From a virus, in IMG/VR virus record IMGVR_UViG_3300036791_001907, positions 1 to 64,000 of that record: a DNA stretch of 64,000 nucleotides, one strand, 5' to 3'. The notes under the pieces are model-generated. The model was not told the DNA's origin and did no database searches. It saw only the letters and a program-made list of their open reading frames with translations. The translations under genes and the position numbers were made by a program. This document shows, piece after piece, positions 7,265 through 64,000 of the stretch. Position 1 is the first letter of the stretch. Each line of letters begins with the position of its first letter.

Positions 7265-10200
7265 ATGGCCTCGATCCCGTTGACTCCCGATGCTGGACCG
7301 ACGGCGGCCCACGGCGCTGACGCCTGGCTGCGGCCCGTTGCCGCGCGGAGTCACCGGACCGGCACGGTCAACGTGGGCCTGGGGCAGACCCGCGCGCAGG
7401 CCATGTCGGTCGTTACGCAGCGTATTGAGGACCGGGGACACGCGACGGCCACCACGATGATCCTCGTGGGGGCAGGCACGCACATCACCGGTGCGCGCGC
7501 CCGTGCCGAACTGACCCAGGTGCATGCGACCGCGACGATCGTGGCTGGTCTGGCGCGCGCCACGCCCCGCGCCGCCAGCCCGGGCTACACGAGCCCGCTC
7601 GGCATCTGGTTGGGTGGTGCCTCCCAGGCGAACTTCAGCGTGCCCACGAGCCACGGCACCAGCACGCTGACGGTCTTCCGCCGCGTGCTCACGTACAGCA
7701 CCGACACGATGGAGCAGGGCATCCCGGCGCGGGTTCAGATCAGCGATACGCTAACGTGGTTCGCCGCGACGCCCATTCACGGCACCAACACGGTGGCGTA
7801 TGCGCGGCTCGCCCAGGCACATCAGACCGATGTGCTGATCCGCACCGCGGCTGCGCGGGTCCACACCACCGGTAGCTTGATCGCATTGCTGCGCACCAGC
7901 GCCCGGGTTCAGCTCACGAACAGTCTTGCCAGAAGCACCTCGACCCGAAGCAGTGCGACCGACAGCCGGACCTACAGTACTGCGCTCCCGGTGAATATCA
8001 CTGATGGATTGCTCCGCGCCACGACCGTCCGGTCCCACGCGACCAGCACGCGCTGCCGCGCCACGGCCGTCCGGTCCCAGACGACCAGCACGCTCTGCCG
8101 TGCTACGCCCATCTGGTCCTTCATGACTGATGCGCTCCGGCGCGCGACCGGAAGCCATCCGCACGCGACCAGCATCCTGCGGTTCGCGTCCGTGAGCCGG
8201 GCGCATGCGACCGATATCCGGACCCGCAGCGCTATCGTCCATGTGCACACGACCGATGTTCGCGCCGCGGTGCGAGTCAGCGCCGCGGTGCTCCATACGA
8301 CTGATGTCGATCGCCACGGGATCGTGGTCCGGACCCACGCGGCCGACGGTCTGAAGCTTTCCCCTGGTGCCTGGGTCTACAACACCGACGCGGCAACCCG
8401 CATCGCGCGGCTCCAGACGCACGGTACCAGCACGCAGGTCGCGCAGCTGGCGGCGCGGCTGCGGGCCAACTTGACCGACACGCGCTCCCGCTGGATCTCG
8501 ATCCGGTCCCATGGCACCGATACCCTGGTCATGCCGGCGGTGGTCGGCCTGGAGGTTTACTCCACTGATATCGTCCTTATGCTGGTCGCGCAGCCTGCCC
8601 ACGGCGCTGACGCCCTGGTCGCGCAGCTCATGGCGACTCCGCAAACCCATGCGGCCGACGCCGATCTCATGGGTCACTGCCATCCGCCCCACGGGACCGC
8701 CACCCTATTCAGCGTATTGACGGCGGCGGTGCACACGACCGACACCAGGATCGCAACGCGCGCGACACAGCAGCGAGTCCATGTCAGCGATACTCTGCTG
8801 CGGCCGCTGGTGGCCTTTGTCCAGCGCGACAACTGGCGCAATGGCATCAACTGGATCGGCCAGTACGGCGCCCAGGGCTACTCGCTCTACAGCTACAACA
8901 ATGTGCCCGACGTGTTGCCGCCGTCCTGCAACTACACCGTCACGAACCTCGGCATCGTCCCCAACTGGGTCACCGGCACGGGGGACCCGCGCTACCTCCA
9001 GGTTCCCAACTCCAGCACCACAGGAGCCGCGGTCTACTACGTGACGACCGGCCCGCCCGGATTGATCACGTTCCAGCTCAATGACAAGCATCCCCACGCG
9101 GTGACGCTCTACAGCTTCGACAAGGAGAAGGCGGGTCGCAAGCAGACCTGGGCGGTCTACGACGTCACGGGCACCACGCTCCTGGATGGTCCCCGCGACT
9201 GCGGCGACTTCGGCACCACCGGCATCTACATGACCTGGAACGTGGACGGGCCGGTCCAGTTTCAGCTCACCGACATGGCGGGCCCCGGGGCCAACGCGGT
9301 GACCTCGGCCTGGTTCATCGACCGGCCGATCACGGTGGGCGCGCGGGCGCACGGCAGCGACGTCGACATGGCGCGGCCGTTCTCCGGCAGGGCCCACTCC
9401 AGCGACACCATGGTGCGGGCAGCGACCGCGGTCTTCGTGCAGCGCGACAACTGGCGGGCATGCTACTGGATCGGCCAGTACGGCGCGCAGGGCTACTCGC
9501 TCTTCCAGGCGGGCGGCGGTGCCGGCACGCCCGATGTTCTGCCGCCCTGGCTCACATACAGTCTGAGCGGTACTGCTGTCCGGAACTGGGATGACGGCTA
9601 TCCGCCCTACTTCCTTGAGATCCCCAACAGTCCCGACGGTATTACCTGGATCTCGATCTTTTACACGGGCACCACCGCGACCGTCACGTTCCAGCTCACT
9701 GACGGTCTTCCTCATGCCCTGACGCTCTTCAGCGAGGACGGTGGCCAGGGCTGGCTGGGGACCATCGCGGTCTACGACGTCACCGGCACCACCCTGCTGG
9801 ACGGGCCCCGGGATGTGGGTCCCATGAGTGCCAATGGCATCTACATGACCTGGAACGTGACGGGCTCGGTGCAGTTCCTGCTTACGGCGACGAATGGCAA
9901 CATGATGGTCGATGCCTGGTTCGTCGACCGGCCGATCACCGTGGGTGGGAAGGCGCACGGCAGCGATAGCCTGACCGCGCAGGTCACGACGGCCAGAGCC
10001 CATTCCAGCGACGCCTTACTGGTACCGGCGGGACCAGCAACCTTCGTACAGCGCGACAACTGGCGCAACGGTGGCCGGTGGATCGGCACCTACGGACTTC
10101 AGGGCTACAGCATCTTCCAGTTGTCCGGAACGCCCGATGTGTTGCCGCCGAACTGCACGGTGATCCCGGCGGGCGGCGGCCTGGTTCAGGACTGGTTTGC

Positions 10201-12934
10201 CTCGAACCCGGGCTACGCCAGCGACCTGCGCCTGATCGAGATCCCCAGCAAGCCTGGCGCCCCTGGGCTCTCGATCTACTATACCAACGGTACCTACACA
10301 TTCACATTCAACTGCGATGACGGTGCCGCACACGCGGTGGCGCTCTACTTCACCGATCCCACAGGCAATAACTGGACGGGAACGGTCACGGCCAAGGACG
10401 TCAACACCGGCGCCGTTCTCGATCCGGTGCGCAATGTGGGCGATGACTGGACGACCGGCGTCTATCTGGTCTGGAACATCATCGGCCATGTCCAGTTCGA
10501 GCTTAGCCCCACGGTGGCGGGCACGAACTTCCCGACTGCGGCCTGGTTCATCGATCGGCCAAGAGCGGTCGGCGGGCAGGTGCATGGCAACGACAGCCTG
10601 ACGGCACTACCCACGCCGGCCGCGCCTGCCGTGGCGTACGCCAGTGACAGCATGCTGCAAAAGCCAGCCGCGCTCTTTGTGCAGCGCGACAACTGGCGCA
10701 ACGGTTTCTGGCTTGACCAGTATGGCGCCCAGGGTTATTCGCTCTTCGACTATAGCGGGGTGCCTGATATTCTGCCTCCCGGATGCACATACAGTGTCGC
10801 CGGCTGCGCCTTCGCGAACCCCTGGCATTCGGGCAGTGATCCCCGCTATCTCCAGGTCCCCAGCGCCTATGGCACCACTCCCGGAGCCGCGGTCTACTAC
10901 ACGACCACGACCGGGACCGTGACGTTCCGGCTCAATGACAACCTTCCCCACGCTGTGACGCTCTTCAGCGTCGACATCGATCGGGTCGACCGCCGGCAAA
11001 CCTGGACGGTCTACGACAGTACCGGCACCAGGATTCTGGACGGACCGCGGGACTGCGGCGACTTCGGCACCACGGCCGTCTACATGACCTGGAACGTGCA
11101 GGGCTCGGTCCAGTTCGTCCTCACCTTTACGGTGAACGCCAATGCGGTACTTTCTGCCTGGTTCATCGATCGACCCTTGCTGGTCGGCGGGCAGGCGCAT
11201 GCCGCCGATAGTTTGGCCCAGACGTTCAGTATCTGCCTCTGGGCCCAGACCACCAGCACGGACTGTCGCGGCGCGGTCATTCGCGCGCATGCCACGAACA
11301 GTCGGATCTATCGTACCGTCGCGGCAGTCCATTCCACGGATCTGTGGACCCTCGCCACAGGTCTGCGCGCGCATGGTACTGACAGTCAGGTTGCGCGGCT
11401 CAGCACTTCGGCTCCAGCGCATACGACCGATAGCAGTCACATCCATACGGCCAGCTGCGGCCATGGCACCAGCAGCGCGGCCCAGTTCATCTTCGCGCAG
11501 GCTCATGGCACCGACGCCGGGACTCGGCTGGTTAGCAGATCCAGCCACGCCACCAGCAGCTGGCTGATGAAGCCCGGCGTCGGCCTCCTGATGCAGACGA
11601 CCGACGTCGACTGCGCCGGTACGCGGCTCCGGATCCACAACACCGGCAGCCTGCTCTCGCAGATCACGGTACGGAAGCATGCCGCGAATGCGCTGGCACG
11701 GCAGACGTTCGTCCGCGCCCAGACGGCGGATAGTTTGCTGGTGCGACCGGCCACGCTGATCCACGCCACGGACGTGCTCTGGCAGCAGCCGGCCATCCGG
11801 GCGCATGCCACGGATCTGCGGACCCACGGGACGTACGCGGCGAACCAGGCGACCGACAGCTGCGCCTTCGCGGCGCACACGGTCACGACCACGACCGATA
11901 CCGGCACCGCGTATCTCCAGGTCAGACGTCATGCAACGGATAGCCGGCCAATGCGGCTCACCACGCGTGCGCACACGGCCGACGCCATGCTCTCCGCGCA
12001 GCGGGCCACGAGCCACGGTACCGACACGGGCAAGCTGGGCTTGTCGTGGCGGCCCAGCTACATCGACGGCCTGAAGCGTGGCACCCTGGTCCGGACGCAC
12101 AACACGAACGCATACGCTGCCGTCGTCCGGACCACGGCGCACGGGACGAATGCCGCGACCTACGGGCTGCGGCTCCAGACGCACGCGACCAGTGCGCTCC
12201 TGGTGCAGTCGCGGTCGTACATCATCAGCACGGATGCGTCGCTCCTGCGGCTGCCGGCGGCCAGGCATCAGACCAACACGGCCGCGGCCGTGCTCAGGGC
12301 GCATGCGCATCAGACCTCGACCATGACCACCATCGCGCCGATCGTCGGCCGCTGGGCCGCGCAGCGGGTCATGACGCGGCAGCCGGCCCAGCTCGCTTCC
12401 CACGATCGCCAGGAGACCAACACGACCTACGGCGTCGGGTTCCTGCTGGTCGGGCCCGACCGGATCACCCCGGTGCTCGGCGCCACGCCCACGGTCCGGC
12501 TCCTGAAGTCGGGGACCACCAGCTGGGTACCCGCCATCGGCACCGTGCGCGAGATCGGCCAGGGCTGGTACGAGCTGATCGGCTCGATCTATGATCGCAA
12601 TGTGGCGGGCGAGACGATCCTGATGGCCACTGCGCCGGGGGCCGAGACCGCCTGGACCAAGTTCGATGTCGTGGTTTCTGCCCCGTATGCCTACATCAGC
12701 TTCGGCACGACGGAACTTGCGGCGATCGCCGACGCAACTCTTACCCGGAGCTTCGGTTCCGCGGCTCTCGTGGCCGCCCGTTCGGTACTCCAGGCGGCCC
12801 GGTCGCTGTTCCAGTGGAACGCGGCCCAGGGCATGCCGTTGAAGATCGTTGCCGAGAATACGACGACGGCGTGGCAGGCCAACACGACGACCGATCCCAC
12901 GATCAACCCGATCCGGGGGGTGGACCCGATGTAG
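7265..12934 (+). CDS. Giant fibre/adhesin (1889 aa): HxTD repeat shaft, four FVQRDNWR domains and a C-terminal anchor-like domain
   Basis: Dozens of ~16-18-aa repeats centred on H-[GAT]-[TSA]-[DSN]; FVQRDNWR domains start at 8816, 9434, 10043 and 10676. Confidence 0.8.
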   Translation: MASIPLTPDAGPTAAHGADAWLRPVAARSHRTGTVNVGLGQTRAQAMSVVTQRIEDRGHATATTMILVGAGTHITGARARAELTQVHATATIVAGLARATPRAASPGYTSPLGIWLGGASQANFSVPTSHGTSTLTVFRRVLTYSTDTMEQGIPARVQISDTLTWFAATPIHGTNTVAYARLAQAHQTDVLIRTAAARVHTTGSLIALLRTSARVQLTNSLARSTSTRSSATDSRTYSTALPVNITDGLLRATTVRSHATSTRCRATAVRSQTTSTLCRATPIWSFMTDALRRATGSHPHATSILRFASVSRAHATDIRTRSAIVHVHTTDVRAAVRVSAAVLHTTDVDRHGIVVRTHAADGLKLSPGAWVYNTDAATRIARLQTHGTSTQVAQLAARLRANLTDTRSRWISIRSHGTDTLVMPAVVGLEVYSTDIVLMLVAQPAHGADALVAQLMATPQTHAADADLMGHCHPPHGTATLFSVLTAAVHTTDTRIATRATQQRVHVSDTLLRPLVAFVQRDNWRNGINWIGQYGAQGYSLYSYNNVPDVLPPSCNYTVTNLGIVPNWVTGTGDPRYLQVPNSSTTGAAVYYVTTGPPGLITFQLNDKHPHAVTLYSFDKEKAGRKQTWAVYDVTGTTLLDGPRDCGDFGTTGIYMTWNVDGPVQFQLTDMAGPGANAVTSAWFIDRPITVGARAHGSDVDMARPFSGRAHSSDTMVRAATAVFVQRDNWRACYWIGQYGAQGYSLFQAGGGAGTPDVLPPWLTYSLSGTAVRNWDDGYPPYFLEIPNSPDGITWISIFYTGTTATVTFQLTDGLPHALTLFSEDGGQGWLGTIAVYDVTGTTLLDGPRDVGPMSANGIYMTWNVTGSVQFLLTATNGNMMVDAWFVDRPITVGGKAHGSDSLTAQVTTARAHSSDALLVPAGPATFVQRDNWRNGGRWIGTYGLQGYSIFQLSGTPDVLPPNCTVIPAGGGLVQDWFASNPGYASDLRLIEIPSKPGAPGLSIYYTNGTYTFTFNCDDGAAHAVALYFTDPTGNNWTGTVTAKDVNTGAVLDPVRNVGDDWTTGVYLVWNIIGHVQFELSPTVAGTNFPTAAWFIDRPRAVGGQVHGNDSLTALPTPAAPAVAYASDSMLQKPAALFVQRDNWRNGFWLDQYGAQGYSLFDYSGVPDILPPGCTYSVAGCAFANPWHSGSDPRYLQVPSAYGTTPGAAVYYTTTTGTVTFRLNDNLPHAVTLFSVDIDRVDRRQTWTVYDSTGTRILDGPRDCGDFGTTAVYMTWNVQGSVQFVLTFTVNANAVLSAWFIDRPLLVGGQAHAADSLAQTFSICLWAQTTSTDCRGAVIRAHATNSRIYRTVAAVHSTDLWTLATGLRAHGTDSQVARLSTSAPAHTTDSSHIHTASCGHGTSSAAQFIFAQAHGTDAGTRLVSRSSHATSSWLMKPGVGLLMQTTDVDCAGTRLRIHNTGSLLSQITVRKHAANALARQTFVRAQTADSLLVRPATLIHATDVLWQQPAIRAHATDLRTHGTYAANQATDSCAFAAHTVTTTTDTGTAYLQVRRHATDSRPMRLTTRAHTADAMLSAQRATSHGTDTGKLGLSWRPSYIDGLKRGTLVRTHNTNAYAAVVRTTAHGTNAATYGLRLQTHATSALLVQSRSYIISTDASLLRLPAARHQTNTAAAVLRAHAHQTSTMTTIAPIVGRWAAQRVMTRQPAQLASHDRQETNTTYGVGFLLVGPDRITPVLGATPTVRLLKSGTTSWVPAIGTVREIGQGWYELIGSIYDRNVAGETILMATAPGAETAWTKFDVVVSAPYAYISFGTTELAAIADATLTRSFGSAALVAARSVLQAARSLFQWNAAQGMPLKIVAENTTTAWQANTTTDPTINPIRGVDPM

Positions 12935-36429: not shown

Positions 36430-37020
36430 ATGGACGGACCCAGGGCTGGCGGCAAGCACATCGCCTTCCATGTCGACGACCGGACCAGGATCTGGACTCC
36501 GATCCAGCGCCTGCACACTCCGAACACGCTGCTCTACACCTGGGGCTACATCGTCGCGCGCTCGGTCGGGATGGGCGATCCGAACTACCGGGTCGCCTGG
36601 GCCTACCTCGAGTTCGAGAACAACTCCGGCACCATTTCCGTCCCATCGTTCAGCCGCGCCGATGGGCTCCAGTACTACATGGATCTGTCATCCAGCTCGG
36701 TCCGGGACTACCTCCGGGTGCCGATCCGGCCCTACCCCGAGATCGTCGTCGCCCCCGGCTTCGAGCAGTACCTGGACCCGAGTCAGGGCAACCAGTGCAT
36801 CTTCTACGCGCAGAGCGCAGGTGGTACCGGGGTGCATGGCCGGCCATTCTCGGATGGGGTGCAGTCCAAGGTCTTCGGGATCGCCCTGGCGGCCGGCCCG
36901 GCTCCCAATGATCCGTCGCAGGACGTGCTCTTCGCCCGCAGCTACTACGACCCGGCGAACCAGGTCCCCAAGGTGCCCTCGGGACAGATCGGCGTCCAGT
37001 ATCCAATGACCTTCGAGTGA
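36430..37020 (+). CDS. Baseplate/fibre attachment protein
   Basis: SD AAGGA; YLEFEN and DVLFARSY motifs; position before the fibre genes. Confidence 0.5.
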   Translation: MDGPRAGGKHIAFHVDDRTRIWTPIQRLHTPNTLLYTWGYIVARSVGMGDPNYRVAWAYLEFENNSGTISVPSFSRADGLQYYMDLSSSSVRDYLRVPIRPYPEIVVAPGFEQYLDPSQGNQCIFYAQSAGGTGVHGRPFSDGVQSKVFGIALAAGPAPNDPSQDVLFARSYYDPANQVPKVPSGQIGVQYPMTFE

Positions 37021-37038
37021 GCGCTCAGGGAGGAGCTG

Positions 37039-38853
37039 ATGCCCGGGACATGGATCAACCGCATCCAGCACGTCAACGACGGCGAGCCCGTCAGCGGCGC
37101 CGTCGACAGCCGGCCGACCCGCGGCCTCGAAGGCAACACCCAGTACCTCAAGGACCGGCTTGACTCCGCCGAGCTGGGCGAAGGGGTCTGCGCCTACGGT
37201 GAGACGGTCGAGGCCGCGGCGGCCGTCGGCATGCCCGTCTACCGCAACAGCGTCACGGCGCAGTACGAGCGGGCCTTCGCCGCCGTCGTGCCGGACCCGG
37301 CGACCGGTGTGCTCGTGCCGGCCCCGTCCTGCGACTGCGTGGGCATCATCATCTTCAAGTACAACGCCACCCTGGCCGACATCCTCCTGGGCGGCCAGCG
37401 GCAGGTCGATCTTTCGGCGGCCGTCGATCCCACGCTGCTCGTCGATGGCGTGGCGCTCCCGGGCCGGTATTACCTGTCCAGCGCCACGCCCGGCATGCTC
37501 GTCCAGCAGCGTCCCCCCGTCTCGGTCTCGGTGCTGGTCTACACCGATGACGGCCTGGCGATCGTCCAGCCGGTGCAGCGCGACTTCCTCGAAGACCACA
37601 TTCATTACAAGGTCCAGCTCTATGCGCAGCCGGCCGGAACCAATGTCATCAGCGCGGGCCGCCACTCGGTGGGTTCACCGGACCCGACCCTGCCGGGCTG
37701 GCTGCCGGCCGGCCACCCCAGCTTCAACGGCCGGGCGCCGACCGGCGCCGCGTTCGGTTACAACCTGGCGGCGCACCCGCAGCTCTCGCGGATCTTCCCG
37801 CCGATCCCCCCGTCGGGAGCGGTCGTCTACCTCGATCGCGGCGAGGACAGTACCGGCGGCAAGCTGGTCCCCATGGGTCCCGGCGGCCTGTGCTCAGTCG
37901 ACTCGTTCGGCATCTGGTGGATGAGCGACTGTCAGGATGATGCCCCCTGGCCTGTGAACTGGTCCGCCCCCATCAACGACCAGACCGGTAACGCATCCAG
38001 CGGCCCCGAATGCCCGCGGATCGTGGACTTCGTGATCACGCTGTCCTACACCATGATGGTCTTCACCACCGAGCGCACCTGTGTGACCAGCTTGCAGCCA
38101 GCCGAGGGCAGCCCGCTGGTGTTCACCGACTGCGACGGCGATCCCGCGACGACCGGCGATCTGCTGGCCGACATGGATCTCAGGTTCCTGGTCGGCCCCG
38201 GCCCGGTCACCGGCAGCCTGGTCTTCAAGGAGCTGGACGGCGCCACCTTCTATCAGGGCCTCGTGGTCGAGGGGCTGACGGCCGGCCCCGGCTGCGCGCT
38301 CTCCTCCACGAACCCGACGCCCCAACCCGGCGGCGGCACCCTCCATCAGGGGATCGTCCAGGTCGCGATCGACACGGCGCCCGCGGAGCAGGAATTGCCG
38401 GTCGACCTGATCCGGCTGGCGCAGACCGAGGAGCGGTTCTATCTCGAGATCCCCTACATCGGGTTTGACCCCGGGGTCTCGACCAGCCTGCGAATGCGTT
38501 TCTACGTCCCTCCCGACGGCCTGCCCGCCAGCCCCATGGTGGCGCTGCGGATGCAGCTCCTGGGCCGGTCCGCCGGCACGCTGCCGCAGCTCACCGTGAC
38601 CTACCGGATCCTGCCGCGGCCGCAGGTGGCGACCAACCTGCCGGACATGACCGCCGAGCAGGCCATGCAGATCGTCACCAACGTGCCGGTCGGGGCCAAC
38701 CAGTACATCGAGGTCCAGGGTACGGCGTTCTCCGTCAGCGCTGGCGACACGATCCTGGTCAACCTGGTGCGGAGCAACAACGACGGCTACACCGATGAGG
38801 TCGGGTTGCTCCGCCCGGTCGGCATCCTGACGGGCACGGGCCCGGGGAGCTGA
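37039..38853 (+). CDS. Tail fibre-proximal/baseplate protein
   Basis: SD GGAGGAG; N-terminal DGEPVSGAVDSRPTRGLEGNTQYLKDRL resembles fibre N-termini; GRYYLSSATPGML motif. Confidence 0.6.
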   Translation: MPGTWINRIQHVNDGEPVSGAVDSRPTRGLEGNTQYLKDRLDSAELGEGVCAYGETVEAAAAVGMPVYRNSVTAQYERAFAAVVPDPATGVLVPAPSCDCVGIIIFKYNATLADILLGGQRQVDLSAAVDPTLLVDGVALPGRYYLSSATPGMLVQQRPPVSVSVLVYTDDGLAIVQPVQRDFLEDHIHYKVQLYAQPAGTNVISAGRHSVGSPDPTLPGWLPAGHPSFNGRAPTGAAFGYNLAAHPQLSRIFPPIPPSGAVVYLDRGEDSTGGKLVPMGPGGLCSVDSFGIWWMSDCQDDAPWPVNWSAPINDQTGNASSGPECPRIVDFVITLSYTMMVFTTERTCVTSLQPAEGSPLVFTDCDGDPATTGDLLADMDLRFLVGPGPVTGSLVFKELDGATFYQGLVVEGLTAGPGCALSSTNPTPQPGGGTLHQGIVQVAIDTAPAEQELPVDLIRLAQTEERFYLEIPYIGFDPGVSTSLRMRFYVPPDGLPASPMVALRMQLLGRSAGTLPQLTVTYRILPRPQVATNLPDMTAEQAMQIVTNVPVGANQYIEVQGTAFSVSAGDTILVNLVRSNNDGYTDEVGLLRPVGILTGTGPGS

Positions 38854-60799: not shown

Positions 60800-61057
60800 A
60801 TGATGGGCATGTGGACGTCTTATCTTCAGCTCCGCGGCGCCGAGGCCCGTGCGGCCGGACGGTCCCGCGACGATCACCAGCTCGACAGCCAGGACGCGGC
60901 GCTGTGGCTGGAGGGCTACGATGCCATGAACCAGAGGATCACGTCGCTCCTCGGCGAGATCCGCAGGGGTTGGCTGGTCCCGCACGTCGTCTTCGTCCAG
61001 CGAGAGCGACCCAGCGTTCCCGTGGTGATCACTCCGATCCGAGGATTGTCCGAATGA
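60800..61057 (+). CDS. Small hypothetical protein
   Basis: SD AAGGAGG; the start may be 60803 or 60809. Confidence 0.5.
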   Translation: MMGMWTSYLQLRGAEARAAGRSRDDHQLDSQDAALWLEGYDAMNQRITSLLGEIRRGWLVPHVVFVQRERPSVPVVITPIRGLSE

Positions 61058-61278
61058 ACAAGCCCAAGTATCACCGCGGCCAGAAGTTCCGGATGGGCAG
61101 CGACGGCTCGCGGTTCGAGATCGAAAACGTGCGCGTGCTGGCACCCGATGATCGGATCGGCTACGAGCTGCGCGGCCTGGAGGAACCATTCCAGGGAATG
61201 GTTCTTCACCGCTTCGAGGCCGAGCTGGAACGCGACTTCGAGCTGGAGCCAGAACCACCAAAGGAGGACCCAGCGTAA
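61054..61278 (+). CDS. Small SH3-like hypothetical protein
   Basis: SD GAGGA; PKYHRGQKF start. Confidence 0.55.
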   Translation: MNKPKYHRGQKFRMGSDGSRFEIENVRVLAPDDRIGYELRGLEEPFQGMVLHRFEAELERDFELEPEPPKEDPA

Positions 61279-61289
61279 CGATGCAGCGA

Positions 61290-61318
61290 ACCGACGGCCA
61301 GCGGTATATCTGGCGGTG
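61290..61318 (+). repeat. Array leader hairpin, copy 1 (ACCGACGGCCAGCGGTATATCTGGCGGTG)
   Basis: 29-nt repeat also found at 62220 and 62529. Confidence 0.9.
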
Positions 61319-61320
61319 AT

Positions 61321-61688
61321 GGCAGCGATGGGTATGTTGCGGCGGGCCGAGCTACGTCGTGGTAGGTCCGGCAGCTGCGGTTGGGTTCGTCATGGCGAGC
61401 CGAGCATGGGTATGCTCCGTCATGGCAGCCGAGGCATGGTTTGTTGGACCATGGCGAGATGAGCTTAGCCGAGCTTCGGCGAGGCAGCCGGGGTGTGGTT
61501 CGGCGGGCTGTGCGGCGCCACGCCAGGGTTGGGCAGCTCAGATCAGGTGTGGACAGCTCTGGCCGGCAGCGCCAGGTCATGGCAGCCGAGGATAGACCTG
61601 GCCAGCCACGCGGAGCCGTCGTGAGCCGGGGCAGCATTGGCTGGTCACGTCATGACACGGCCAGTCGAGCACGGCCATGTTATGTCAG
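61321..61688 (+). ncRNA. Pentamer-periodic guide-RNA array 1 (7 units; GNY-NN modules)
   Basis: GGCAG anchors at 61321, 61370, 61424, 61483, 61532, 61581, 61630 and GTCAG at 61684. Spacings are 49, 54, 59, 49, 49, 49, 54, all 9+5n. Confidence 0.8.
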
Positions 61689-61706
61689 CATTGAAAGGAG
61701 GTGAAT

Positions 61707-61928
61707 GTGTCAAAGATAGTTCATTTGATCTATCATCGCGTCCCCAACGATCGGATCTCAGACATGAGCGAGGTCGTGGGGGTCGTGACCACGGGCTGGC
61801 AGGATGCCGATGCGATCGTGGATCAGCTCAACGCGCGGGACCCATCCGGATTCGGCTGGCAGCGCGACTACTGGAAAAAGGAGGTTGATGTCATCACCAA
61901 GGATGATGTTCCGCGTCGCACTCCATGA
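61707..61928 (+). CDS. Small hypothetical protein between arrays
   Basis: Perfect SD AAGGAGGT; GTG 61707. Confidence 0.6.
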   Translation: MSKIVHLIYHRVPNDRISDMSEVVGVVTTGWQDADAIVDQLNARDPSGFGWQRDYWKKEVDVITKDDVPRRTP

Positions 61929-61940
61929 CAGGAGACAGCG

Positions 61941-62207
61941 ATGATCTGTCCGGAATGCGGGCATTCCAACCCGGTGATCGCCGCCGAGTGTCTCAAGTGC
62001 CGGTGCCGGTTCCTGGAACACGGTTGTTTTTCCGAGCAGTATCAGCACCCGCTCGTCGGCAAGCGAATCCAGGTCAATACCAGGACCGGCTGCATGGCCG
62101 AAGGGGTCGTGGAGCGGGTGGTGTCTTCACGTTTCGGCCTGCTCGCCTGCCTGGAAGGCGAAAACGGCAGGGCCTGGGCCGTGAACCAATGCACGCCGGT
62201 CACCTGA
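61941..62207 (+). CDS. Zinc-ribbon protein between arrays
   Basis: SD AGGAG; CPECG...CLKC. Confidence 0.65.
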   Translation: MICPECGHSNPVIAAECLKCRCRFLEHGCFSEQYQHPLVGKRIQVNTRTGCMAEGVVERVVSSRFGLLACLEGENGRAWAVNQCTPVT

Positions 62208-62219
62208 CCGGCGTCATGG

Positions 62220-62248
62220 ACCGATGGCCGGCGGTATATCCGGCGGTG
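62220..62248 (+). repeat. Array leader hairpin, copy 2 (ACCGATGGCCGGCGGTATATCCGGCGGTG)
   Basis: Compensatory stem change GCCAG/CTGGC to GCCGG/CCGGC. Confidence 0.9.
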
Positions 62249-62250
62249 GT

Positions 62251-62522
62251 GGCTAGCCCTGGCGACATCAGCAATGGTCGCGCGAGCACTGCCGTGGCGC
62301 GTTCAGGCAGTACAGGCGGGGTGATGCGGGCAACGGCAGGGCCGGGTCCGTCCGGCGATGTCATGCCACGGTATGGCAGCTCAGGTGAGTTCAGATCGGC
62401 CATGCGCGGGCTGGCTGCGGTGACCAGAGGTGGGTCGAGCCGTGGCGAGGCAGCGTAGCCATGGAAGGGTCGGGTCGGTTGAGCTGCGGCGAGCCCAGCT
62501 GACGCAGGGCTGGCCGCGGCAG
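62251..62522 (+). ncRNA. Pentamer-periodic guide-RNA array 2 (4 units)
   Basis: Anchors GGCTAG 62251 and GGCAG 62306, 62375, 62449, 62518; spacings 55 (1-nt insertion), 69, 74, 69. Confidence 0.8.
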
Positions 62523-62528
62523 CAAAGA

Positions 62529-62557
62529 ACCGATGGCCAGCGGTATATCTGGCGGTG
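62529..62557 (+). repeat. Array leader hairpin, copy 3 (ACCGATGGCCAGCGGTATATCTGGCGGTG)
   Basis: Third copy of the 29-nt repeat. Confidence 0.9.
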
Positions 62558-62569
62558 ACGGGAAGCATC

Positions 62570-62628
62570 GGCAGCGACGGAATGGCAGGGCAAGTTGCGT
62601 CTTGTTCCGGCCAGCCAAGTCATGGCTG
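62570..62628 (+). ncRNA. Pentamer-periodic guide-RNA array 3 (single unit matching the adjacent Cas7-like gene)
   Basis: GGCAG 62570 to GGCTG 62624 (54 nt); the NN string matches 62854-62883 at 9 of 10 dinucleotides. Confidence 0.8.
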
Positions 62629-62754
62629 CGTCGTATTGCCGATCACTACGAGGACGATCCGCCTGCGCGGTGGATCGGAACACGTACTGAACACCCTACA
62701 GTTGCAGGGCCGCGGGACGCGCGGCCCGTCTCACTGGCGACAAAGGATGATCCA

Positions 62755-63666
62755 ATGCCAGCCAAGAAAGGTCCGGCCAAGGGGACAGTCCCGGTCAACA
62801 TCCCCCAGCCACAGATCCTCGACTTCGGGATCGGACTCATCGGCGTGACGCCGACGATCTCGAACGCATTCCCGCAGAAGATCCGTGAGAAGCTCGTGGC
62901 TGATCACATGCACATGCCTGAGGCCCTCATCCCCCACGAGGCCAAGGACCCGTGCGCCAACTTCAGCGCGTGCATCCACTACGTCAAGTCCAAGGACGGT
63001 GGGGTCAACTTCGCCATGCCCGGCTCCTCGTTCAAGGGGGCCATGGTCGCGGCGTGCCGGATGACCAACAAGAAGTTGGACATGGCCAGTGCCAAGCAGT
63101 TCTTCCAGGTGATCCCGTTCCGGGTCCAGATGTACGGCGACGAGCCGATCATGTGCGAGCACCGGGTCCGCAACGACAACGGCGGCGTCGACATCCGGCA
63201 CCGGGCCATGTACTGCCGTTGGTCGGTGATCCTGCCGATCCGCTACCACGCGGGGTCGATCTCCAAGGAGTCCCTGATCTACCTGGCGGAGCTGGCCGGC
63301 TTCGGCTGTGGCATCGGTGACTGGCGGATCGCGGCGCCCAAGAGCCCCAACGGGCAGATGGGCGCCTTCCGCGTGGCCCGCGAGGGCGAGATCGTCGGCC
63401 CGGCGTACTCCAAGTGGTGCGCCAAGAACCCGTTCGACTGGGACGAGTTCGAGCAGTACGGCATCGTCCCGCCCGCGCGGGTCGAGTACTACCGCAAGGC
63501 CGCCGAGATGGTTCGCGGCCTGCCGCCCGAGCAGCGGGGCACGCCCAAGAAGGGCAAGAGCCGGAAGGCTGTGCCCACCGCTGCGGCCGCCGCGGCGATC
63601 ATCAACGGCGTCCAGCCCGTCGACGGCCTTGAGCCGCCCGATGACGGCTACGTGCCGCAGCAGTAA
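62755..63666 (+). CDS. Stand-alone Cas7/RAMP-like RNA-binding protein (candidate guide-RNA effector, Vipr-like)
   Basis: SD AAAGGA before ATG 62755. RAMP hallmarks: beta1 IGLIGVTP, MPGSSFKGAM (cf. IPGSSLKGA), thumb region HRVR...DIRHRAMY..W and Gly-rich loop AGFGCGIGDWR...GQMGAFRV. Confidence 0.75.
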   Translation: MPAKKGPAKGTVPVNIPQPQILDFGIGLIGVTPTISNAFPQKIREKLVADHMHMPEALIPHEAKDPCANFSACIHYVKSKDGGVNFAMPGSSFKGAMVAACRMTNKKLDMASAKQFFQVIPFRVQMYGDEPIMCEHRVRNDNGGVDIRHRAMYCRWSVILPIRYHAGSISKESLIYLAELAGFGCGIGDWRIAAPKSPNGQMGAFRVAREGEIVGPAYSKWCAKNPFDWDEFEQYGIVPPARVEYYRKAAEMVRGLPPEQRGTPKKGKSRKAVPTAAAAAAIINGVQPVDGLEPPDDGYVPQQ

Positions 63667-63741
63667 CCACTTCGTGCAGGAGGACGACCGGGGGCCAGGA
63701 TGGCCCCATCTTTCCCGCAACCCTAGCAGCAAGGATCGAAC

Positions 63742-64000
63742 ATGCCATCGGGTGTCAAGAAGAAGTCATCAGCGCCGGCGCCGGCGCTCAAGTACGAGTT
63801 CCGGGCCTGCTTCCGGAGCCCGCTCGATCCCAACGTCGTCGCGGCGCGGCTCGAATGGCTCAGAACCAGACTGAGCCGGGACCCGGAGGGTCAGGACGTC
63901 CTGGAAGACGCCCGGCCCGTCGGCTCGCCGTTGCATGATCACTTCGACTGGAATGACTACGAGGCCGGCGAGAAGCATCGGCTCGGCCAGGCCACGGATC
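63742..64000 (+). CDS. Partner protein of the Cas7-like gene (3'-truncated by the window; absent from the ORF track)
   Basis: SD AAGGA; open to the window end: MPSGVKKK...DVLEDARPVGSPLHDHFDWNDYEAGEKHRLGQA. Confidence 0.7.
   Translation, partial: MPSGVKKKSSAPAPALKYEFRACFRSPLDPNVVAARLEWLRTRLSRDPEGQDVLEDARPVGSPLHDHFDWNDYEAGEKHRLGQATD

Follow-up and report, generated by a model that had tools for sequence, protein, structure and literature searches.

VIPR systems are phage-borne DNA silencers related to CRISPR and consist of a single Cas7-like protein, Vipr, and of vrRNAs that are built from 9–16 five-base repeats, each made up of a GGY motif and two free letters (10.64898/2026.04.26.720920). 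According to the same preprint, the free letters recognise double-stranded DNA in the pattern NNxNNx, where the skipped base x is usually the wobble position of a codon; relaxed repeat consensuses are listed as NNNGG, YNNNG and NNNNG, and the phages' own systems are described as being without self-targets. It also describes "staggered" arrays, in which adjacent vrRNAs share one letter, so that each vrRNA's end also defines where the following one begins (fig. S18 legend); seven VIPR types have been published, and the supplement text gives staggered arrays no type. One Vipr protomer is reported to occupy each repeat, and the residues that contact the GGY letters have been named (10.64898/2026.04.26.720927). 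Guides aimed at the vipr genes of rivals, together with a shuffled-guide calibration of the kind applied here, are described in a further preprint (10.64898/2026.10.15.759431). Here we analysed positions 61321–62522 on the + strand of a 64,000-base window, which comprises positions 1–64,000 of the 161,481-base IMG/VR record IMGVR_UViG_3300036791_001907. This region contains two non-coding tracts with two small open reading frames (ORFs) between them, and the eleven five-base-stepped units found in the tracts are very probably vrRNA guides of the phage's VIPR system, organized in staggered arrays.

Segmentation by phase tracking resolved array 1 (61329–61686) into seven units and array 2 (62259–62520) into four. 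An earlier note on this DNA had read one string of dinucleotides from each unit, and all eleven strings are letter-for-letter identical to the two letters preceding each fixed G. Those of array 1, all on the + strand, are guide A at 61329–61368 (8 repeats: TG AT GC GG GA AC GT AG), guide B at 61377–61426 (10 repeats: GC TG TC AT GA GA TG AT CC AT), guide C at 61431–61485 (11 repeats: GA AT TT GG AT GA GA TA GA TC GA), guide D at 61490–61534 (9 repeats: GG GT TC GG GT GC AC AG TG), guide E at 61539–61583 (9 repeats: CA CA GT CA CT CG GC AG AT), guide F at 61588–61632 (9 repeats: GA TA CT CA AC GA GT GA GG) and guide G at 61637–61686 (10 repeats: TT TG AC AT AC CA GA CG AT AT). Array 2, on the same strand, holds guide 1 at 62259–62308 (10 repeats: CT GA CA AT CG GA CT GT GC CA), guide 2 at 62313–62377 (13 repeats: CA GG GA GG AC AG CG CC CG AT AT AC AT), guide 3 at 62382–62451 (14 repeats: CA GA CA CG AT CG TG GC GA GA GG GA GT GA) and guide 4 at 62456–62520 (13 repeats: TA AT AG CG CG GA GC GA CA GA AG TG GC). 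The note was also right in calling the ends of guide A irregular, since this unit starts after the five letters AGCGA and stops one letter before the usual NN-GGC. Together the units comprise 116 pentamers, with G at position 3 in 109, G at position 4 in 54, a pyrimidine at position 5 in 102, and two leading letters that are near-random. The guides, eight to fourteen repeats in size, therefore display the five-base repeats and the hypervariable NN letters of vrRNAs, with G-B-Y instead of GGY as the deviation.

The five-base pattern is well past chance and is not a by-product of a G+C-rich genome. Runs of at least seven NNGNN pentamers occur 24 times on the + strand of the window, 12 of them within 61329–62626; none of the 24 such runs on the − strand falls there. 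Spectral power at period 5 peaked at 4.0 at position 62376 (window mean 0.78, standard deviation (SD) 0.51), and the power at period 3, the coding period, was lowest in the arrays, at 0.4–1.4. Tandem Repeats Finder reported no array in the tracts because only positions 3 and 5 of each step repeat. A comparison with Rfam gave no family in the arrays, its single row being a chance microRNA match elsewhere (E 0.39).

The pattern extends past the window to ~67,840, with one further array near 85,400; among the 42 + strand runs of at least nine pentamers in the whole record, 38 lie within 61329–67838 or at 85421. The locus as a whole carries at least 64 different guides (731 pentamers) in eight transcription units, where a few long ones among the 64 parsed units are probably two units merged. 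Across these units, the entropy at positions 1 and 2 was 1.94 and 1.99 bits, position 3 was G in 93%, position 4 was G in 47%, C in 31%, T in 16% and A in 7%, and position 5 was a pyrimidine in 85%. The claim that the guides are all distinct also stood, as no pair among the 64 units shares more than five in-register dinucleotides (30 shuffles: mean 5.2, maximum 6). Units almost invariably close with a canonical GGC repeat, with GGC ending 43 of 51 units, and the four-letter spacer is AGCN in 26. Because the units end in GGC and a four-letter spacer follows, the five-base phase shifts by −1 at every junction. This shift is equivalent to the one-letter overlap in the fig. S18 legend (10.64898/2026.04.26.720920), and neighbouring units of this locus thus overlap by one letter as do those of staggered arrays. 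Comparison of contigs from one public DNA run over 61280–63700 indicated a single strain without variant letters.

The locus provided an internal positive control for the decoding rule in the form of a twelfth guide, which makes up array 3 (62577–62626, + strand; 10 repeats: AC AT AG AA GC TT CC CA AA AT). This guide was compared with the whole record in five dinucleotide registers and with skips of 0–3 bases, giving 20 combinations. The sole outlier was the register of the earlier note combined with a one-base skip, which matched 18 of 20 letters at 62854; the maximum reached by 30 shuffles was 16, and in a separate test the match lay beyond all 100 shuffles. The matched site (62854–62882, + strand) is located within the vipr gene of this phage, where it comprises the codons for TISNAFPQKI, and at the amino-acid level the agreement is 10/10. 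The ISNAFPQK core of the site is conserved in Vipr relatives, and when the 64 units were compared with nine of these relatives at the amino-acid level, only the twelfth guide matched (8/10). It is likewise the only one among the 64 units that beats its shuffles in the record. Since the twelfth guide matches vipr only in that register and with that skip, the eleven NN strings were read in the correct register. For the proposal that the strings act as guides with a gapped NNxNNx code, the register and the one-base skip were therefore validated within the genome by this neighbouring guide.

The vipr gene (62755–63666, + strand) lies directly after the third array and encodes a Cas7-like RAMP protein of 303 amino acids, its assignment to Vipr being one of sequence homology. 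A phmmer search matched the product to the solved SUSP1 Vipr protein chain 36pp_D (E 7e-4). The thumb arginine and a C-G-x-G-D-W-R loop could be aligned between the two proteins, such that residues R150, C185, D189, W190 and R191 correspond to R138, C173, D177, W178 and R179 of SUSP1 Vipr. In PHROGs the product falls into phrog_4652, a family of unknown function (E 4.6e-12). An AlphaFold model of the product (mean predicted local distance difference test (pLDDT) score 67.3) was used in a Foldseek search, in which the 30 top-ranked rows were all chains of CRISPR-Cas effector complexes (best E 1.8e-3, probability up to 1.00); those named in the titles were Cas7-family chains (Csm3, Cas7-11 and gRAMP), apart from one Cmr1. 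The product is accordingly predicted to adopt a Cas7-like fold, and with moderate confidence we regard 62755–63666 as encoding a minimal RAMP Vipr protein related to Cas7.

Nine metagenomic homologs of this protein (P0002–P0010) share 44–60% identity with it, and the GGY-contact residues are invariant in them. Homologs in cultured phages, at ~30% identity, comprised 27 Mycobacterium, 5 Gordonia and 1 cyanophage record. The virus collection, queried by the single protein and by the alignment, contained no close Vipr relatives, and the alignment found no relatives in the species-representative genomes. In the metagenome collection it detected only five distant loci through a match of 17–18 residues each, and none of these loci has an NNGNN run longer than nine pentamers. 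A DNA search with 60800–63700 against cultured phages gave no match.

By analogy with the published systems, each array would be transcribed from a conserved start motif, and cleavage of the transcript at the ...NN-GGC / AGCN junctions would release guides of 8–14 pentamers, with neighbours sharing one junction letter. One Vipr protomer would then cover each pentamer, hiding the G-N-Y letters and presenting the two NN letters, which would pair with double-stranded DNA in the form NNxNNx..., usually at codon positions 1–2 with the wobble base skipped, and the bound gene would be silenced. We infer expression, processing, filament assembly, DNA binding, silencing and the identity of the targets from the preprints. 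Several observations weigh against the assignment of the units as vrRNA guides. Where the canonical motif is GGY, only 47% of the pentamers have G as their second repeat letter, even though the residues holding that G in SUSP1 are conserved in this phage, and in the notation of the preprint the consensus is YNNGN, which lies outside the listed NNNGG, YNNNG and NNNNG. The units have no structured 3' tail of the SUSP1 type, and their folding does not surpass that of shuffles (z −2.25 to +0.09). On the protein side, the alignment of Vipr with the solved protein spans just 45 residues, the structure model is of no more than moderate quality, and no Foldseek row for it passes E 0.001. The public runs listed with this DNA include no RNA run, the sole run being the probable source DNA sample. 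Finally, a target was found for none of the eleven guides.

The search for targets within the genome covered the 161,481-base record, out of a contig with a recorded length of 227.7 kb. For the eleven guides, the top matches in this record comprised 12–20 letters (68–83% of the NN letters), and each was reached by 11–100% of 100 dinucleotide-order shuffles. At the amino-acid level, with both orientations considered, none of the eleven exceeded 30 shuffles in the record. Pooled hits at identities of at least 65%, 70% and 75% numbered 794, 141 and 31, respectively, where shuffles gave 762.9 (SD 47.7), 123.4 (SD 11.8) and 24.9 (SD 5.3). At the same thresholds, the fraction of in-gene hits with the skipped base on a wobble position was 0.34, 0.30 and 0.27, and 0.34, 0.33 and 0.40 in shuffles. 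The earlier note had found no target in the window, and this result extends to the whole 161-kb record. Its suggestion that targets might lie elsewhere in this genome is not supported for these 161 kb; inside this genome we found hits at the level of shuffles and without codon-phase bias, which is the outcome that the note itself had named as speaking against its prediction. Self-targeting by the eleven guides is absent within the record, and hits at shuffle level are what would be expected of a system that avoids it.

Guide D was pursued further. Its 15/18 own-genome match formally passes the published 80% line, and so do 14% of its shuffles. This lead, at 8624–8649, is in register and antisense within the gene of an 1889-amino-acid repeat protein, and it was rejected after the coded peptide was found in none of four relatives of that protein (best 5/9). 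The gene itself spans 7265–12931. Residues 380–540 of its product show many internal repeat matches, with roughly H-x-T-D every ~20 residues, and its relatives are up to 3108 amino acids long and carry lectin-like Pfam domains according to the precomputed hits of the database. The protein is probably a virion fibre or decoration protein.

Searches beyond the genome were made as ten scans for exact patterns, without mismatches, and covered six of the eleven guides; guides A, B, D, E and F were left out, exact hits with 16–20 letters being at about chance level by our estimate. The genome collection represented 185,579 species, each by a single genome. Array 2 guide 3 (dinucleotides 2–13) had no exact match in either the genome or the virus collection, and the same was true of array 2 guides 2 and 4 (for both, dinucleotides 4–13 in the virus and 3–13 in the genome collection) and of guide C (dinucleotides 2–11 in the virus collection and all 11 in the genome collection). 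Array 2 guide 1 and guide G, each searched whole, had no exact match in the virus collection. Guide matches of at least 80% were likewise absent from the 61,516 bases of loci L014–L019, which take in the distant metagenome loci and, as L019, a stretch of the Mycobacterium phage Donkeykong. These external negatives are weak evidence because close relatives of this phage's Vipr are also missing from the collections. Judging by analogy with the published systems, the targets probably belong to rival elements or to the host, the foremost candidates being genes of competing phages and other mobile elements outside the searched collections.

The composition of the NN letters points in an indirect manner to targets that are genes read in codon register. 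These letters contain 51.6% G+C, in a genome of 66% G+C with wobble positions of 84% G+C. The best of seven composition models for them was that of coding-strand codon positions 1–2 of the phage's own genes, at −3.968 bits per dinucleotide versus −4.099 for genome dinucleotides. Over the 64 units, GA accounts for 10.7% of the dinucleotides and TC for 3.6%. The sense-versus-antisense log-likelihood averaged +2.06 per guide, where windows of the phage's own genes gave +3.28 as sense and −3.24 as antisense. A positive (sense) lean was seen in 42 of the 64 guides, and 53 would be expected if all were sense and 11 if all were antisense. By this arithmetic, about 75–80% of the guides look like coding-strand copies, an estimate that assumes an amino-acid use of the targets roughly like that of this phage. 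The remark that several strings resemble protein-coding ones was borne out, in that 8 of the 11 lean to coding-strand codon positions 1–2 by log-likelihood. The lean was at least 7 bits for guide C (+7.3), guide F (+8.4), array 2 guide 3 (+11.0) and array 2 guide 1, the score of the last having included three extra 5' dinucleotides; guide D leans antisense. Should the strand bias be general to VIPR arrays, guides might be preferentially made from the coding strand or selected to copy it, which we consider doubtful at present. If true, the bias would be a clue to guide acquisition, for instance from transcripts, or it might indicate that guides pair preferentially with the template strand, although reporter assays in the literature did not show this. 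The coding-strand lean offers an inexpensive statistic for application to VIPR arrays in general.

The failure to find a target for any of the eleven guides is also what would be seen if the arrays were mainly decoys or sponges, that is, Vipr-binding RNAs that soak up or redirect the Vipr of a rival phage and whose NN letters need no target. A precedent exists in satellite-borne solo vrRNAs of E. coli, stand-alone vrRNAs that are described as redirecting the VIPR machinery of another element (10.64898/2026.10.15.759431). However, those published decoys are reported to retain real (host) target sites. Moreover, in our phage its own vipr gene adjoins the arrays, the NN letters are not random and resemble coding-strand codon positions 1–2, and the twelfth guide, which belongs to this locus too, clearly matches a gene, all of which makes the decoy function very unlikely.

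A second alternative is that the guides regulate genes of the phage itself or of its host, for timing or takeover and through partial matches, and not those of rivals. The near match of the twelfth guide to the phage's own vipr and the location of arrays 1 and 3 within 5' leaders of protein genes would fit such a role. Against it stand the own-record hits at 70% identity or more, 141 versus 123.4 in shuffles, and the share of these with the skipped base on a wobble position, 0.30 versus 0.33; in addition, four of the eleven guides had no exact match in the 185,579 species genomes. We judge this possibility to be very unlikely indeed. The notion that the stretch encodes protein or is no more than a simple repeat, with the five-base pattern as a by-product, has next to no probability in spite of the mechanically called ORFs of 78–177 amino acids that overlap the arrays, given that period-3 power is lowest and period-5 power peaks there, that Tandem Repeats Finder sees no array where only positions 3 and 5 repeat, and that the pattern spans ~6.5 kb on one strand behind eight copies of one start motif.

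RNAs bound by TRAP are recognised through conserved (G/U)AG triplets every five bases and are accompanied by a gene for a TRAP-family protein. An RNA that wraps around a TRAP-like ring protein was rejected for our arrays on the grounds that the letters before the G are near-random and that no TRAP-like family was found among 146 proteins compared with PHROGs.

The interpretation as vrRNA guides of the phage's VIPR system also takes in the start motif, a 23-nucleotide sequence (GGCCAGCGGTATATCTGGCGGTG) that heads each array. Its eight copies in the record are all on the + strand and form a 5-bp stem with an 8-nucleotide loop; the stem varies among copies by changes on both sides (GCCAG/CTGGC, GCCGG/CCGGC, GCCAC/GTGGC). 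The first copy (GGCCAGCGGTATATCTGGCGGTG, 61296–61318) is located ahead of array 1, the second (62226–62248) has the stem GCCGG/CCGGC, and the third (62535–62557) is located ahead of array 3; the others are past the window, at 64290, 64685, 67139, 67491 and 85325 of the record. Some 5–20 nucleotides separate the motif from the first GGCAGC junction, and its role could be that of a phage promoter, of an operator or of a hairpin for 5' processing. A sigma-70 scan did not call the motif and placed two promoter-like sites at 61691–61736 instead, and a scan of 61000–64000 returned no terminator-like sites.

Between the two arrays, a 75-amino-acid ORF (61701–61928, + strand), for which no family was found, is preceded by a strong ribosome-binding site that immediately follows the final guide of array 1. 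It is followed by an 88-amino-acid ORF (61941–62207, + strand) with a weak zinc-ribbon match to PF13240 (E 0.0058; 16.8 bits against a Pfam cut-off of 25). Because of the position of this ribosome-binding site, array 1 may be the 5' leader of the mRNA for the 75- and 88-amino-acid ORFs. The leader between the twelfth guide and the start of vipr (62627–62754, 128 nucleotides) folds somewhat better than shuffles (z −2.16) and contains a G+C-rich hairpin without a T run. Downstream of vipr, a 177-amino-acid ORF (63742–64275, + strand, the window ending at 64000) is a candidate accessory (vap) gene. Its single homolog, P0012 (50% identity), has a longest contig of 43,292 bases, equal in length to that of the Vipr relative P0002. 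No Pfam family was found for the ORF, and in the Atlas it matched only viral clusters, which are without a Pfam family, and its structural matches there to named families remained below a template modelling (TM) score of 0.5. Its structure model (pLDDT 36.6) was unusable. Elsewhere, the record encodes a tail sheath, a baseplate wedge, a large terminase, a ribonucleotide reductase, a DNA polymerase, a primase and helicases, and it is that of a large tailed phage. A CsrA-like regulator (phrog_9500, E 2.6e-22) is encoded on the − strand at 104273–104494 of the record (L011 1273–1494) and may be a hint to the kind of host.

The first descriptions of VIPR date from 2026, and a few clades are those with known natural targets. 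The picture of its mechanism is unchanged by our findings, which concern a known kind of system and add a member locus. What this soil phage contributes is a large arsenal, in which 64 or more distinct guides are spread over eight transcription units, and a relaxed G-B-Y motif that occurs alongside conserved GGY-holding residues, together with an internal control showing that this motif, too, follows the published code. The eleven decoded strings can serve as queries against the genomes of the phage's rivals or host in order to show what this phage fights.

Compared with the Cas7 backbone of class 1 CRISPR systems, the locus has in common the RAMP fold, one protomer per fixed guide step and a periodic interruption of pairing. 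The step in class 1 CRISPR is six letters of which five pair, whereas here it would be five letters of which two pair; unlike class 1 CRISPR, the locus is virus-borne and has no repeat-spacer array, no cas1/cas2 and no nuclease beside the gene.

The nearest homolog in a cultured phage is gp49 of Mycobacterium phage Donkeykong (NC_051648.1), with ~30% protein identity over residues 26–207. In Donkeykong a staggered array whose units start with CAGGC lies directly upstream of gp49, and the upstream placement is common to both phages. Its array is canonical NNGGC and sits under ORFs annotated as hypothetical proteins, whereas ours has the relaxed G-B-Y; furthermore, Donkeykong is a 59-kb temperate siphovirus and our phage is large and myovirus-like. 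The NNGGC array occupies ~36914–37233 of NC_051648.1 (L019 3488–3807), under gp47 and gp48, and over this stretch the two ORFs are probably not genes.

The experimentally characterised systems are the Type II VIPR of Escherichia phage SUSP1 and that of a Pseudomonas fulva prophage, with which our locus shares the GGY-holding Vipr residues and, as judged from the twelfth guide, the decoding rule. As reported for solo vrRNAs of the SUSP1 family (10.64898/2026.10.15.759431), a guide aimed at a vipr gene is present here, namely the twelfth. SUSP1 vrRNAs are ~100 nucleotides long, have a conserved 3' pseudoknot tail and are few per locus, whereas the guides of our phage lack a tail and abut one another.

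In relation to the published staggered-array VIPR systems, our locus differs in that the second letter is G in only 47%, giving the consensus G-B-Y, and in that at least 64 guides are distributed over eight transcription units, each behind the 23-nucleotide hairpin motif and with small ORFs between them. In other respects it conforms to them: it is carried by a phage and combines one Cas7-like Vipr gene with adjoining long non-coding tracts; its five-base repeats have a fixed G and Y and two free letters, with neighbours overlapping by one letter; and, as judged from the twelfth guide, it follows the same one-base-skip code in codon register, with the same avoidance of self-targets.

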